Positions 1 through 15,514 of a stretch of DNA of 18,148 nt are shown here, piece by piece. The stretch lies in the IMG/VR virus record IMGVR_UViG_2609459852_000016. One strand, written 5' to 3'. The translations under genes were made by a program, and so were the position numbers. The notes beneath the pieces are model-generated. The model ran no database searches. It saw only the letters and a list, made by a program, of their open reading frames with translations, and had not been told where the DNA came from. Within the stretch, counting starts at the first letter, position 1; each line of letters starts with the position of its first letter. The stretch is from a virus (Duplodnaviria > Heunggongvirae > Uroviricota > Caudoviricetes).

Positions 1-507
1 ATGGAAAAGTTTTCATTGGAGTTCAAAAAGGTAGTATCAGAAAAGTACCTGGAGGGAGAGTTGAGTCTGAAATCTGTAGCAAGGATGTACGGTATCAGTC
101 CCTGCACAGTAAGAAAATGGGCTTATGCCTATCGGGAACATGGGATAAGCATACTTACGGGTAAAAAAGGACGCTATTCTGCTGAGTTAAAACTCACAGT
201 AGTAAAAGAAGTCGTGGATGACTGTTTTTCTGTTCGTGAAGTAGCGGTAAAACACGGAATACCAGCCTTTGGTACTGTATGCAACTGGCTTGAAAAATAT
301 AGAAAATATGGCGAAGATGCTTTCATTCGAAAAAATAAAAAGAGTATTCCTGTACCGGATAAAAGCGCCATTTCAGCACCACCACTACCAACATTAACCA
401 AAGATGAGAGAGAAGAACTTGAACAACTCAGGGTCGAGAATGCCTACTTAAAAAAGCTGAAAGCCTTGGTTCAGCAGAAAACATGCTCAACGTTCAGGAA
501 AAAGTGA
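1..507 (+). CDS. IS3-family transposase OrfA (HTH DNA-binding, leucine-zipper-like C-terminus)
   Basis: ATG at 1, stop TGA 505..507. C-terminal LEQLRVENAYLKKLKAL heptad-like segment is typical of IS3 OrfA proteins. Confidence 0.85.
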   Translation: MEKFSLEFKKVVSEKYLEGELSLKSVARMYGISPCTVRKWAYAYREHGISILTGKKGRYSAELKLTVVKEVVDDCFSVREVAVKHGIPAFGTVCNWLEKYRKYGEDAFIRKNKKSIPVPDKSAISAPPLPTLTKDEREELEQLRVENAYLKKLKALVQQKTCSTFRKK

Positions 508-11309: not shown

Positions 11310-11521
11310 CAGAACCTCGCCAGCCGGTACCCGGGATGCCCCCGTCGTAGTGTAATCAGAGCCGCAAGGCGGCGCTCCCACTCCTGCCGTCCCTGCCGGA
11401 TCTCAGATAAGTTTTCCATGGTCATCTGCTGACCATTAAAGGTGACGGATTTTCCGTCCAGCACCGCCATTTCAGCTTCCGTATAACGCTGAATCATGGC
11501 TTCGATATCATTCTGGTTCAT
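11309..11521 (-). CDS. Head-tail joining protein W-like
   Basis: 70 aa, between terminase large subunit and portal as in lambda. ATG at 11521 overlaps the terminase stop (ATGA), with GGAGG 6 nt upstream. Confidence 0.5.
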   Translation of the reverse strand: MNQNDIEAMIQRYTEAEMAVLDGKSVTFNGQQMTMENLSEIRQGRQEWERRLAALITLRRGHPGYRLARF

Positions 11522-13620
11522 AACCATCCTCCGGAAGTCAGCCAGGGGTTAACATCGTCAGTTACTGTTTTCTTCCGTTTTTGTTTTTTAACAGGCGTGG
11601 ATACCGGTTCCGGTGTGGGTGACGGTTCGGTACTGTCCGGGACACACTCCAGCCAGGTTTCCCGGCTCGCCCACTCCGGTGCATCCGGCCAGCGGATCTT
11701 TTCGTATCCATGCAGAATGACCAGAGCCTCGGCATACACCATCAGGTCAAAAGCTTCGTTGGCACCGCGACCCGGCTTACTCCATTTCCCGTCACTGCTC
11801 CGCTCTTCATACGTCAGTTCGTCGTAAAACCAGCTCCCCAGCCAGTCAGGGAAATGCACATAGCCGGGACCTGGCGAGTCACGCCATAACGCGTTATTCA
11901 CCCGGTCTTTCAGGGCATCCGTCTGAAGAAGCCAGAGCGGCACATCACCTGCGGCCTGCGCCCGGCGGCCCGTTCGTCCGGTGTTATCAGGGAATGTACG
12001 GCTGATCAGTTTTGCGCGCCGGATGCTGTCACCCTTAAACAGGTAAATACGTTTACCAAGGCCATCACGACGGCAACGACGCCAGAATTTATAGGCATTA
12101 TCAGTGACCCCGTCTTCACCGCCGGAGTCCACCGCCATTGCCATCAGTCGCATTTGTTGAGAAGGATCGGAGGCCAGCGGCCAGCTTTTATGAAAAACAT
12201 CCGTCAGCAGGACATCCCAGTCTTCCGGATAGCTGGCCGGATCAATTCGCTGGCTCTCCCCGTCGCTGTCACCGCGCAATGACTGCGTGATGTTGTAACG
12301 ATCAATAATCCAGCGTTCGCCACGGCTGCCATAGCCCGTTACCTGAACCACAAAACGGCGATGACGTCCCGCCTGCACATCCACTGTCGCCACAAGGAAA
12401 TTAACGCCATCCGGCACACTGCGGGAAGGAACTGGCTCTGCCCGCTGCTCAAGCAATTCACTTTTTCGTTGATCCATGCTGGCGCGGGGAAGATAAGGTA
12501 ATCCCCAGTCGGTATTGATAACCGTCTTGAGTGTCTCTTCACTTCCGGTTGTCTCGTATTCCTGTTCTGCAGTAAGCAGTTTGTAAACGAGTTGCGAGAG
12601 TGTCTGATAAGCAGCTGCCGGACCCTCCATCCAGAATGACGCAATACGTGAACGCCGGGGATCACCATAACGACTGCCATCTGCATTGATGGATTCACCA
12701 TCCCGTAACCAGACCCCACGTCCGTTCAGCTCGCGTTTTTGTTCAGGCAAAATCCGTCCTGAACAGGAAGGACACTGAATATAAGCCGCCTCACTTGCCA
12801 GCACAGGATCGGCAATATCACGGAAACCAGCAACCACATCGCCGCAGGGCTGAAAATACTCACCACAGTGTGGACAGGGCCAGTACCAGCGACGGCGATC
12901 GCCACGGTTATAGAGCGACAGGATCCCCGTGGTTGGTGGAGCCTCATGCGGTGAAGTCCGTCGCCATTTCACATCCTTCACATCCCTGCCGGGGGAACTC
13001 TCCACCAGCGTCATACCACTGGACATAAATGTGGTGGTACGTTTTGAGGCAAGAGAGAAGGCATCCCCCTCACCATCAATATCTTCCGGAAAACGGTCAT
13101 AATCCGTCAGCGCCACGCATTTATAATCTGATGAAGACATGATATTGACTGACGGCCAGCCGATTTTCAGGTAGTTGCCAGCAAGGAATGTTCTGTCATA
13201 AACGTTGTTGTCATTTTTGTTCGGACTCAGGCGACTGACCACTTCCGGGCTGACGCGAAACGTTCTGGCGAGTCGTTTTTTGGAGTGTTCGCGGGCTTTT
13301 TCCTCCGTCATCTGAATGATCAGCATATCAGCAGGATCGCAAATCACGTTGTAAATCCCCCAGCCGTCAATCAGGCCGATAGTCTTGCCGGTTCGTGCCG
13401 GGCCAACAAATATCACTGCGTCGTATTCACGCGAGGCCAGGCAGTTCATAGGCTCAATAACATACGGTGCCACCAGCGGATCCCACGGGACTGAGTTCCC
13501 TGCCCCCATAGGCACCCGCATATACTGAGCAACGGCATCAGCAACCCGCATTCGTCTCGGTGCGCGAAGGATATAACCTGAATCGGTTCGTGCTGCCTTT
13601 GCGGTTTCCTGATTCAGCAT
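11518..13620 (-). CDS. Terminase large subunit (lambda gpA-like)
   Basis: 700 aa with Walker-A-like VGPARTGKT and Cys-rich CPHCG...CPSC segment as in gpA. AGGAGG SD 5 nt upstream; start overlaps the small-subunit stop (TAATG). Confidence 0.85.
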   Translation of the reverse strand: MLNQETAKAARTDSGYILRAPRRMRVADAVAQYMRVPMGAGNSVPWDPLVAPYVIEPMNCLASREYDAVIFVGPARTGKTIGLIDGWGIYNVICDPADMLIIQMTEEKAREHSKKRLARTFRVSPEVVSRLSPNKNDNNVYDRTFLAGNYLKIGWPSVNIMSSSDYKCVALTDYDRFPEDIDGEGDAFSLASKRTTTFMSSGMTLVESSPGRDVKDVKWRRTSPHEAPPTTGILSLYNRGDRRRWYWPCPHCGEYFQPCGDVVAGFRDIADPVLASEAAYIQCPSCSGRILPEQKRELNGRGVWLRDGESINADGSRYGDPRRSRIASFWMEGPAAAYQTLSQLVYKLLTAEQEYETTGSEETLKTVINTDWGLPYLPRASMDQRKSELLEQRAEPVPSRSVPDGVNFLVATVDVQAGRHRRFVVQVTGYGSRGERWIIDRYNITQSLRGDSDGESQRIDPASYPEDWDVLLTDVFHKSWPLASDPSQQMRLMAMAVDSGGEDGVTDNAYKFWRRCRRDGLGKRIYLFKGDSIRRAKLISRTFPDNTGRTGRRAQAAGDVPLWLLQTDALKDRVNNALWRDSPGPGYVHFPDWLGSWFYDELTYEERSSDGKWSKPGRGANEAFDLMVYAEALVILHGYEKIRWPDAPEWASRETWLECVPDSTEPSPTPEPVSTPVKKQKRKKTVTDDVNPWLTSGGWL

Positions 13621-14114
13621 TACTCCTCCTGCTGTAATTCCTCCTCATCATCCGCACCTGCTTCAGTCACCCGCAGGGCTTTCTGATCGCGCAGATCATC
13701 AATAATGGACTGAACACGGCTCACAGCGGCAGGCTGCAGACCGCAGTCACGTTCAAGAATATCCGGTAATGTCTCCAGCACCTGCACGACCGCTTTTGCC
13801 CAGATGGCAAACTCCCGTCTGACATCACTGGCCGGAATGAGTTGTGCCGTTTCCTGTTCGAACTTAAGACGCTCACGTTCAGACTGATACCAGGCTTTGC
13901 GCTCATGCGCGTCCATTTCGCCTTCTGCAACCGGCGGTGGTAATGCCAGAAATGCCGACACAATATCAACCACCCGATAAAGCTTGAGGTTGCTTTCATG
14001 CCCCCCTGCAACGGGTAGATTTTGCAGCCTTGCCGCAGCAGTCTGGCGATGTACACCTGACAATGCCGCCAGTTGACTGATATTCAGCGTCAGATTTTTT
14101 AACTCTCGATCCAT
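13620..14114 (-). CDS. Terminase small subunit (lambda Nu1-like)
   Basis: N-terminal HTH-like LNISQLAALSGVHRQTAAARLQ. The start lies 186 nt from the putative cohesive end (lambda Nu1 starts at about nt 191). GGAG SD. Confidence 0.75.
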   Translation of the reverse strand: MDRELKNLTLNISQLAALSGVHRQTAAARLQNLPVAGGHESNLKLYRVVDIVSAFLALPPPVAEGEMDAHERKAWYQSERERLKFEQETAQLIPASDVRREFAIWAKAVVQVLETLPDILERDCGLQPAAVSRVQSIIDDLRDQKALRVTEAGADDEEELQQEE

Positions 14115-14205
14115 ACCCGCTCCAGAATGTTTTAAACATGCATCTTGCGAACAACTTTAGGCAAACGGTGTTAGTGATGAACAAAAAACAATCAGAATCG
14201 ACACC

Positions 14206-14246
14206 ATAAAAATAAAACCACTGTAATATCAATCAATTACAGTGGT
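14206..14246 (-). other. Perfect 11-bp-stem hairpin plus U-tract in the cosB position (terminator-like or terminase/IHF site)
   Basis: Plus-strand accactgtaat-atcaatca-attacagtggt (14217..14246). On the minus strand it is followed by UUUAUUUUUAU (14206..14216). Confidence 0.4.
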
Positions 14247-14283
14247 GGTGATGACGAATAAAATTTCAAAAACTAGCCTTTTT

Positions 14284-14300
14284 CCGCGACGCTCCCGCCC
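14284..14300 (-). other. Candidate cos site (cosN-like cohesive-end sequence)
   Basis: Minus strand reads GGGCGGGAGCGT-CGCGG, against lambda left end GGGCGGCGACCT-CGCGG (from memory), followed by a GAAATTTTA...TTCGTCAT motif similar to the lambda cosB region. Confidence 0.5.
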
Positions 14301-14666
14301 CGTGGCAGGGACCCCCACTGGGAGGACCCGACAGCCTGACAACCGTGACGAGCATCTGAAACAGAGCTTTACATAATGGCATGGGGATAATTCAGAAGGA
14401 CATCACAGCATGCCCACACAAATTAGTGTGAGTGTCCTGTTTCTTACTACGCGCAGGACTGACGAGCATGAGGGGAAAATACGCGAACCGAAATGCCTTA
14501 TCTTCAGAAATGCAGCCGGCATCCGAACTGGACGATATTGTAAATTCACCTAAATACGAGGCATTGCTGTAGTTGAATTGCAGTACTGTATTAGCCTTAC
14601 AGTGACAGAATACGATATTGACTCTGTCACTTGTGAAATGGTCAGAATGGTTAGCAGTTATGGTGA

Positions 14667-14873
14667 TCAGTCAACCACCAGGGAATAATCCTTCGTATTC
14701 TTATCGTGCTTTACTAACGCGGCCTCAATTGCCCTGAATGCTTCCAGAGATACTTGATGTTCTATACATGCAATTACAACATCCGGGTAACCCATCGAAA
14801 TGGTGCTATTAAGCATAGTTTTTACACGAACCTGCTCCTGGGAGGGGGCATCAGTGTATTGATCTTTATGCAT
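14667..14873 (-). CDS. Hypothetical small protein (68 aa), cargo gene of unknown function
   Basis: ATG at 14873 with GGAG 9 nt upstream; balanced amino-acid composition; no motif recognised. Confidence 0.5.
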
Positions 14874-15168
14874 TTTGTCGCTCCATTCGTTTGCTCTTCA
14901 CTTGCGGCTAAAAATATAACGTCAAATCACTCAGCATGAAAGAGTGAAAGTTTCAGCGCGTTTCCCTCACATAATCTGTCGTTTGTATTCTCTTCAGGCA
15001 TACCGGAAAGACTAGGTATTGTCACACAACCAATACCATCGACAATCGAGATTTATATCTATTCGGTAATGTTTAAATATAACAAAACCCCGTAAAAACG
15101 AGGTTTATGGGTAATTTGTATTGTTGAATAGCATCTGATGAGAAATTGATGCTAATACTATAAACATG

Positions 15169-15342: not shown

Positions 15343-15514
15343 CATTTCCTCTTTTAGTCTGTTATGACTGTCCTGGTACACAGTAGTGTCAATTATATGG
15401 AGCAAACGTATAAAAGATAAGATGAAACATCGCAATAATCAACATACGACGGTCTAAATTTCACACAAACAGATAAAGATGATTATCATTTATTATCAAT
15501 GCATTAGAATCAAA

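Follow-up and report, generated by a model that had tools for sequence, protein, structure and literature searches.

A predicted lambda-type cos site with a polymorphic palindrome around its candidate IHF core in Escherichia coli lambdoid prophages

The predicted cohesive end and its closest described relatives

In the lambda model of packaging, integration host factor (IHF) folds the DNA and a dimer of the small terminase subunit (TerS) contacts the R3 and R2 sites (PMC4669245, PMC9026076), with R3 at bp 50–65 (PMC9026076). Lambda-like phages share the order R3–I1–R2–R1 and have variable right halves in their cohesive ends (PMC4669245, PMC9026076); differences at bp 7–12 are common, and Gifsy-1 differs at positions 8, 9, and 11 (Feiss et al., PMC4669245). 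In the mEp460 group, cos is unmapped, and the authors of the Ayreon study only 'expected' a cos site upstream of terS (PMC5764929). The present analysis concerns positions 14206–14300 of an 18,148-nucleotide stretch of viral DNA (IMG/VR record IMGVR_UViG_2609459852_000016; Caudoviricetes), the whole of which is referred to below as the window, where the original prediction placed a divergent cos site with a hairpin instead of the lambda R3/I1 region. The window is an Escherichia coli lambdoid prophage of Qin-region-like setting. The prophage looks intact and lambda-like, of the mEp460/cdtI/Gifsy-2 type, and the segment, read on the minus strand, is probably its cos site; we put the probability of the whole explanation, namely a cos site, a cosB region in the lambda order, a hairpin overlying it, and a weak-to-moderate terminator as an added effect, at roughly three in four. 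All cos features lie on the minus strand of the window, which is the coding strand of every gene in its cos/terminase part, and cos positions are numbered along that strand with bp 1 at 14300. The comparison covered 66 loci from the genomes of other species, 80 viral contigs, and named phages. The set with the window type of cosB comprised 75 loci and 51 haplotypes, picked as the best TerS matches, so that contrasts in diversity drawn from it partly reflect ascertainment.

The predicted 12-nt 5′ cohesive end, GGGCGGGAGCGT (14289–14300, minus strand), equals the first 12 nt of the Tritos and cdtI records. It is directly followed by CGCGG (14288–14284, bp 13–17), which together with the conserved spacer between cosN and cosB (CGCGGAAAAAGGCTAGTTTTT, 14268–14288, minus strand) is invariant in the 75 loci, is common to three different cosB/terS modules, and resembles lambda bp 13–33. 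A heptamer, GGGTCCT (14323–14329, minus strand), which we take to be the cosQ heptamer, stands 22 nt upstream of the cohesive end and nowhere else in the window; it is kept in relatives and lies 23 nt before the right end in lambda. Compared with the lambda end in J02459, GGGCGGCGACCTCGCGGG, the window 12-mer is the same at eight of 12 positions and differs at 7, 8, 9, and 11; the two have GGGCGG as their left half and CGCGG as flank in common, and to this extent the original prediction was accurate. The end is nevertheless not unusual, as shown by the cdtI and Tritos records and by the many right-half variants in relatives (GGGCGGCGGACT, ..CGGGGT, ..CGCGCT, ..CGAACT, ..CGAGGT, and ..GGGACT). 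Even within one cosB/TerS type it is polymorphic at bp 7, 11, and 12 (loci L072–L151, L007, and L085), the majority form being GGGCGGGAGCGT and the variants ..GAGCGG (17% at bp 12), ..TAGCGG, ..CAGCGG, ..GAGCAT, and ..GAGCAG. The predicted cohesive end is, on this comparison, an ordinary one for the lambda-like group rather than a divergent one. The distance of 186 nt to the start codon of terS, which had been described as conserved, is present (ATG at 14114, bp 187), but its conservation was rejected; the likeness to lambda, in which nu1 starts at 191, is fortuitous, since the start lies at bp 128–141, that is, after 127–140 nt, in most relatives that have this terminase family.

Several related records bear on the position of the ends. 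The linear record of Tritos (OV696610.1) starts with GGGCGGGAGCGTCGCGGAAAAAGGCTAGTTTTT and ends with ...CCCCTGCCACG / ...CCACG, which is exactly the junction in the window, and the cdtI record (AB285204.1) starts with the same 33 nt. The record of the sibling phage LLS has, 129 nt before a terS of the DUF1441 family, a feature annotated as '5′ extended single-strand cohesive site GGGCGGCGCGCT', and the record of Hafnia phage yong2 opens at the CGCGG that succeeds the 12-mer; the mEp460 and Ayreon records were opened arbitrarily. Because of the Tritos and cdtI record ends, the LLS annotation, the lambda-identical cosQ and left half of cosN, and a gpA-type large terminase subunit (TerL), the identification of the segment as a putative cos site has good indirect support. 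A literature search for the 12-mer on either strand returned nothing relevant.

Order of the predicted cosB elements and the terminase

Aligning the cos regions of relatives, a check that the original prediction had named, revealed a shared architecture of cosQ, cosN, R3, IHF site, T-tract, R2, and R1; this architecture, its conservation, and the covariation described below were read directly from the sequences. In the family as a whole, cosQ, cosN, and CGCGG are followed by the conserved spacer AAAAcGGCTaGTTTTT, by a direct repeat at about bp 46–60 (CATCATCATCAT, which in the window has the version CATCACCACCAC at the same place), by an ATCAA-type IHF core on the other strand, by a T-rich tract, by an inverted block, and by a second direct repeat. 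In the window, these repeats correspond to a direct R3-like repeat, GTCATCACCACCACTG (14240–14255, bp 46–61), an R2-like repeat inverted relative to it, ATGGTGTCGAT (14197–14207, bp 94–104), and a direct R1-like repeat, GTTCATCACTAACACC (14167–14182, bp 119–134), all on the minus strand. Read directly, the R3 core TCATCACCACCAC and R1 TCATCACTAACAC agree at 11 of 13 positions, and the inverted R2 block (GTGTCGAT / GATGTCGAA; GGTGTCGAT in the window) is conserved across genera. The claim that a hairpin replaces R3 and I1 is thus contradicted, equivalents of R3, I1, R2, and R1 all being recognizable, and the segment between cosN and terS appears to hold a cosB with R3, inverted R2, and R1 in lambda's order and orientation. 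The R1 block of relatives reads TTCA(T/C)CATCATG and overlaps the ATG of terS in short versions. In those short cos versions (127–131 bp; L016–L059, L153, and L154), the R1-like repeat covers the terS start codon at about bp 118–131; it is a matter of speculation that TerS bound to R1 could occlude its own translation start there.

R3 (bp 49–59) and R2 (bp 94–104) are inverted copies of each other in the register i + j = 153, with 91% of cells paired. Within this register, bp 58 and 95 (window positions 14243 and 14206) covary, being A–T in 42 haplotypes, G–C in six, and G·T in none; the mutual information of 0.375 is the strongest relevant covariation of the region and its score was reached by none of 500 shuffles. 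The joint change could reflect co-evolution of two sites read by one protein or gene conversion between them. An outer helix of the minimum-free-energy fold, CACC/GGUG in register i + j = 150, was rejected, since the covarying pairs 58/95 and 57/96 fit the R3/R2 register of 153. Homology between TTCGTCAT in lambda (bp 66–73) and the same string in the window (bp 43–50) was likewise rejected, the offset from cosN being 23 bp.

Between R3 and R2 lies an I1-like candidate IHF core, TATCAATCAATTA (14227–14239, bp 62–74, plus strand), which matches the consensus WATCAANNNNTTR perfectly and covers the inner stem and loop of the palindrome. A scan of the 18-kb window yielded two perfect consensus matches against 0.78 expected; the other one, TATCAATGCATTA (15494–15506, plus strand), lies in the cargo-gene region upstream of cos. 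Across the 51 haplotypes, conservation is complete or at least 90% at TAA (bp 62–64), TTGAT (bp 69–73), and A74, and the most variable positions are bp 66 and 67, which are N positions of the consensus (minor-allele fractions 0.61 and 0.28). A match with 0–2 mismatches, on the same strand and starting at bp 61–64, was found in all but two of 41 anchored distinct cos regions from E. coli, Citrobacter, Klebsiella, Enterobacter, Pantoea, Serratia, and others. The site between R3 and R2 is therefore a predicted IHF site with a perfect consensus and with position and strand conserved in the family, and the suggestion that the hairpin region might be a terminase or IHF recognition structure seems essentially right, the perfect consensus being central and the left arm lying in the R3-like repeat. 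The T-tract TTTTATTTTT (14208–14217, bp 84–93, minus strand), which had been read as the U-rich tail of the hairpin, provides on its other strand an A-tract 5′ of the IHF core, where direct reading places the A/T-rich tract AAAAATAAAA 9 nt away. It is nearly invariant, is also present in relatives that have no hairpin (L007, L009, and Tritos), and has a lambda counterpart, TTTTTATTTA, at the same coordinates, bp 84–93. The layout of core and A/T tract resembles that of the H′ site, which we take as a lead only.

The resemblance to lambda cos extends from a 12-nt G-rich end with an identical left half, CGCGG, GGGTCCT 22–23 nt upstream, and a similar spacer from cosN to R3, through a direct repeat at about bp 46–61, an IHF-type site, a T-tract at bp 84–93, an inverted repeat, and a second direct repeat, to a gpA-type TerL. 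The two differ in the end's right half and in their R sequences, which are unrelated (TCATCACC.. in the window, CGTTTCC.. in lambda). Furthermore, the IHF core of the window is perfect and lies about 12 bp nearer cosN than the best matches in lambda, its TerS belongs to DUF1441 instead of Phage_Nu1, and its IHF core is bracketed by an 11-bp palindrome. The phages cdtI and Tritos share with the window the cosQ region, the cohesive end, the identical first 33 bp, a DUF1441 TerS, and an IHF consensus on the same strand at bp 64–76. From about bp 34, however, they carry another cosB module, with repeats of the TTTCACCTG type and neither a palindrome nor a terminator-like site, and their TerS is about 42% identical to that of the window, a module exchange comparable to that between lambda and phage 21. 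The E. coli lambdoid phages mEp460, Ayreon, and phi458 have a TerS that is 98.8–99.4% identical to that of the window, and the same cosB was seen directly in mEp460_4F5, where one C-to-T change in the hairpin gives a G·U/G·T pair. In Gifsy-2 of Salmonella, whose DUF1441 TerS is 47.5% identical, three R-like repeats, CAGCACTGAAAA, TTTTCAGTGTCGAA, and TTCGACACTGAACG, stand in the same order and orientation, TTTTCAGTGTCGAA being at the place equivalent to R2; the TGTCGAA block of R2 and an ATCAA-type site between R3 and R2 are also shared. Gifsy-2 differs in that its IHF-like core lies on the opposite strand with one mismatch, it has no tight palindrome, and the sequence before CGCGG is not of the GGGCGG type. 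The DUF1441 TerS of LLS is 58% identical to that of the window. By this comparison, the window carries what reads as a lambda-type cos site in function and layout, composed of the cosQ, cosN, and first 33 bp of cdtI/Tritos and the cosB/terS module of the mEp460 group.

The breakpoint of module exchange lies at about 14267 (bp ~34; L003, L005, L009, and L152), where one and the same left part (cosQ, cosN, and the first 33 bp) continues into at least three cosB and terS modules: the window/mEp460 type, the L009/PhiR40 type (TerS 86%), and the Tritos/cdtI/HannyBb type (42%). One locus (L128, IMGVR_UViG_2778261579_000007) has a pair of cos sites on the same strand, at 2315 and 3720 and 1.4 kb from each other, a window-type cos and terS being followed about 725 nt after terS by a Tritos-type cos, with no large terminase gene between them. 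Rearrangement of a prophage, survival of a cos-bearing remnant, or chimeric assembly may account for this locus.

The small subunit gene, terS (13620–14114, minus strand), encodes 164 amino acids of Pfam family DUF1441 (PF07278, 1.4e-40), and its open reading frame (ORF) overlaps by one base that of terL (11518–13620, minus strand), which encodes a gpA-type TerL of 700 amino acids with ATPase and endonuclease domains (PF05876, 1.1e-70; PF20454, 1.8e-85). The label Nu1 given earlier to the small subunit is wrong by sequence, DUF1441 being the sole Pfam match, and the name was dropped after a BLASTP comparison of TerS with lambda Nu1 detected no similarity (E = 19). A search of TerS against the sequences in PDB gave chance matches only, and a literature search for 'DUF1441' found passing mentions in three phage papers only. 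In an AlphaFold2 model built from a 32-sequence alignment, with a predicted local distance difference test score of 74 and values of 74–84 over residues 1–60, the N-terminus is arranged as strand–helix–helix–wing–helix, a predicted winged helix–turn–helix (HTH). The best Foldseek match, 6hn7_B, was weak (E = 0.026, TM 0.56 on the target) and its molecule is unnamed in the output, 6HN7 coming from the Rpp/terminase study 'Hijacking the hijackers'; winged HTH proteins of the MerR family came next, all matches being weak (E ≥ 0.026). TerS probably works like Nu1 while standing outside the Nu1 sequence family.

Considering these results, we envisage that a gpA-type TerL, held by the DUF1441 TerS, would make staggered nicks that leave the 12-nt 5′ end GGGCGGGAGCGT, with cosQ 22 nt to the left and, to the right, a cosB composed of R3 (bp 46–61), I1 (core at bp 62–74 plus the T/A-tract at bp 84–93), inverted R2 (bp 94–104), and R1 (bp 119–134). 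A bend made by IHF at I1 would bring R3 opposite R2, and the winged HTH domains of TerS would bind both. The R3/R2 symmetry, at about bp 76 (76.5), would fall close to the IHF dyad, which we place at about bp 75 by comparison with the structure of IHF on H′. A palindrome centred on the IHF dyad was considered and rejected, the centre of the palindrome lying at bp 69.5, the dyad so placed at about bp 75, and the R3/R2 centre at 76.5. In sense RNA, the stem and the pre-existing U-run would form a weak-to-moderate intrinsic terminator, which would shield terS and terL from un-antiterminated transcription out of the upstream cargo genes.

A polymorphic palindrome over the R3-like repeat and the candidate IHF core

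The perfect 11-bp inverted repeat reported in the original prediction is present on the minus strand, with its 8-nt spacer TGATTGAT and T-rich tail TTTTATTTTTA. The left arm, ACCACTGTAAT (14236–14246, bp 55–65), is the 3′ part of R3 and is 100% complementary to the right arm, ATTACAGTGGT (14217–14227, bp 74–84), which is the most variable segment of the cos region. Because the left arm is the 3′ half of R3, the centre is the IHF core, and the T-tract predates the hairpin, the hairpin appears to overlie R3 and I1 and does not replace them; it joins the IHF core to the 3′ half of R3 and to a second, inverted copy of that half, which lies between core and T-tract. When the 187-nt cos region was shuffled 20,000 times, 12 shuffles contained a perfect repeat of ≥11 bp with a loop of 3–16 nt (P = 0.0006), and the RNA fold of the region (−20.9 kcal/mol, z = −4.5) was matched by none of 200 shuffles.

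The palindrome is perfect in only five of the 51 haplotypes, and the second pair at the base of the stem is broken in 19, which moves the stem away from the U-run. On the other hand, 92% of its cells are still paired, and nearly every haplotype retains the 7-bp core CTGTAAT/ATTACAG, only part of which is IHF consensus. At three pairs, both sides have changed (as in 8 of 500 shuffles), the covariation score was reached by two of 500 shuffles, and G·U cells outnumber A·C cells by 40 to 12, or 5 to 4 when counted by type of change. In locus L007, whose TerS is 99% identical to that of the window, the palindrome is absent and R3, the IHF core, the T-tract, R2, and R1 are all kept. Because the palindrome is polymorphic and absent from a locus with a 99%-identical TerS, we conclude that it would not be essential for packaging and is best seen as a polymorphic, dispensable overlay on the predicted packaging signal.

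Variation is concentrated around the palindrome. In a patch at bp 41–106 (window positions 14195–14260; L072–L151), 15 of 66 positions, among them bp 57, 58, 66, 67, 77, 82, 83, 94–96, and 106, have a minor-allele fraction above 0.1, compared with five of 495 positions in terS and none in bp 13–40, a contrast that is partly ascertainment in loci selected by TerS. Bp 1–40 and bp 107–680 are almost invariant in the 75 loci, synonymous sites of terS included. It is conceivable, though we consider it rather unlikely, that the palindrome has no function and is a by-product of turnover at unconstrained cosB positions, through short-patch recombination between alleles or template switching at quasi-palindromes, the perfect form being a transient allele. 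The hot spot (15/66 positions polymorphic vs. ~1% in terS), the minority status of the perfect form, and locus L087, which looks like a recombinant of window-type and L007-type alleles, are in keeping with such turnover. Template switching is an established mutational mechanism and would itself yield apparent compensatory changes. Absence of function sits poorly, however, with the high fraction of cells that remain paired, with a 7-bp core kept almost everywhere and only partly explained by the IHF consensus, and with the low probability of a perfect 11-bp repeat arising by chance.

The palindrome also has the canonical shape of an intrinsic terminator: an 11-bp stem with four G–C pairs, an 8-nt loop, and an immediate U-rich run with nine U in 10 nt, in the sense of the late operon. 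A terminator scan calls the region (11 pairs, four G–C, 8-nt loop, tail TTTATTTTTA; stem–loop −15.0 kcal/mol) and finds, on this strand, no other terminator-like site between the last upstream ORF, which ends at 14667, and terS, the hairpin being the first such site downstream of that ORF. The mean stability is −11.3 kcal/mol in sense and −8.8 kcal/mol in antisense orientation, the sense strand being favoured in about 27 of 40 haplotypes and the opposite strand in four, and pairs 2, 3, and 4 show changes of the compensatory or wobble kind. These features raise the alternative, which we regard as possible and yet doubtful, that the palindrome is primarily a Rho-independent terminator, which would block transcription in the lysogen from cspI, ynfN, gnsB, and a ybcW-like gene into terS and terL and be read through by Q-modified polymerase, its overlap with cosB being incidental. 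What would be at stake is that expression of terS and terL in the lysogen would nick the chromosomal cos.

Unlike in ordinary intrinsic terminators, the inner stem and the loop are under the constraint of a protein-binding consensus: ATTGAT in the loop and the TAAT/ATTA that closes it are conserved as IHF consensus and needless for termination. The U-run is older than the hairpin and is kept with or without it, and hence provides no independent evidence, and the base of the stem is broken in many alleles (the 19 of 51 haplotypes noted above), off the U-run. The excess of G·U over A·C pairs may represent one inherited polymorphism. Moreover, L007, Tritos, and cdtI, whose cosB is of sibling types, adjoin the same upstream region with no terminator-like site, and the sibling L009 type has only a weak one, at R1. 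Between them, these points tell against termination both as the primary role and as the added effect in the explanation that we prefer; termination of un-antiterminated transcripts from the cargo genes is still the likeliest added effect of the palindrome, one that we hold tentatively and as a plausible, secondary role. A search of positions 13900–14900 against all Rfam families with E up to 1 gave no match. Sigma-70 promoter-like sites within cosB (TTGATA-18-TATGGT in sense and ATTACA-17-TAAAAT in antisense orientation) were dropped, four being found against 3.1 expected.

Perfect inverted repeats of 5–9 bp with unrelated arms occur in cosB of other genera, those of Citrobacter, Enterobacter, Escherichia sp., Phytobacter, Pantoea, and Hafnia elements (L020–L023, L028, L032, L059, and L154; bp ~65–100) being of 6–9 bp, and end exactly at the TGTCGAA of R2; these are not terminators, because they have no T-run. 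Repeats of at least 9 bp arose in <1% of shuffles. The local hypervariability and these TGTCGAA-ending repeats suggest that inverted repeats within cosB have a role or a mutational origin outside the lambda model. A further reading takes the arms as two TerS half-sites in tight inverted arrangement (R3 and an 'R3-prime'), on which a winged HTH dimer could recognize cos on unbent DNA independently of IHF, the tight pairs near R2 in other genera acting likewise. The left arm at bp 55–65 would coincide with bp 55–63 of R3, where lambda TerS makes its contacts (PMC9026076), the arms (CACTGTAAT) resemble the R repeats of Gifsy-2 (CACTGAAAA / TTTTCAGTG), and the unrelated, T-run-less repeats of several genera would fit as well. 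We nevertheless find this reading improbable, considering that the right arm is the most variable part whereas TerS is invariant, that Watson–Crick symmetry is perfect in so few haplotypes, that L007 has no right arm altogether, that the centre-to-centre spacing is 19 bp in the window and about 11 bp in L020, and that the IHF site lies between and over the arms, so that the proteins would compete.

A more elaborate form of the explanation preferred here, a cos site with an overlying hairpin, would combine two uses of cosB, the same 40 bp acting at the DNA level as the packaging signal for IHF and TerS and at the RNA level as a terminator hairpin that silences the terminase in the lysogen, with a hypervariable cassette made up of the non-contact positions of R3, I1, and R2, where equivalent R3 and R2 positions vary in concert. 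That both parts hold is, in our judgement, unlikely. The cassette could result from selection on packaging specificity, as against cross-packaging by co-resident prophages or cos-bearing satellites, or from template-switch mutagenesis driven by the palindrome.

Several further points count against the preferred explanation. Among records of this cosB type, only mEp460_4F5 (LR595868.1; L004/L158) is opened close to cos; it begins 5 nt to the left of the predicted nick, with CCACG before GGGCGG..., is 3 nt short in its cohesive end (GGGCGGGAGCG-CGG), and has ...GGTGGCCTG as its final sequence. These ends look like an assembly artefact at physical genome ends and lend weak support to ends at this place. 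The termini of the cdtI and Tritos records may partly have been set by homology, and the ends given for this cosB type are predictions. The boundaries of the R sites are ambiguous, R3 being a run of CAC/CAT triplets into which several registers fit, and TerS is no sequence homologue of Nu1, with a weak fold match (E = 0.026). The shuffle controls can be beaten by related sequences that have no structure at all, and the sequences with compensatory changes are closely related, with L007 having no stem.

Genomic setting and meaning of the predicted cos site

A 306-nt query containing cosQ, cosN, and cosB (14115–14420) had matches in 2113 of 5426 complete E. coli genomes, several of which are 100% identical over the cos region. 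In EC-107, the gene order runs from the Q antiterminator and a lysis cassette through cspI, ynfN, gnsB, and a small hypothetical ORF to the noncoding cos, and from there through a 'DUF1441 family protein', the large terminase, the portal, and a ClpP/capsid fusion to the tail genes. Two contigs labelled 'MAG: Bacillota bacterium' (L006) and 'MAG: Proteobacteria bacterium' (L007), MAG denoting a metagenome-assembled genome, carry an E. coli-type cos and terS with 99% identity, and their labels are probably due to binning contamination. In the cargo-gene region upstream of cos, a terminator-like hairpin at 15085–15111 can be read on both strands (AAACCTCGTTTTTACGGGGTTT plus a T-run on the minus strand) and is probably a bidirectional terminator.

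The cos finding is real and mostly already-known biology; its only mildly unexpected aspects are the local hypervariability and the palindrome that surrounds the IHF core. Its use for annotation is that it settles where a very common group of E. coli prophages has its packaging site and, probably, its genome ends. It also extends the R3–I1–R2–R1 logic of lambda to terminases whose DUF1441 small subunit has no sequence similarity to Nu1, which may be of use in predicting packaging specificity, the mobilization of cos plasmids and satellites, and transduction. The hairpin would matter only if it were to insulate the terminase genes or if the hypervariability were to represent selection on packaging specificity.

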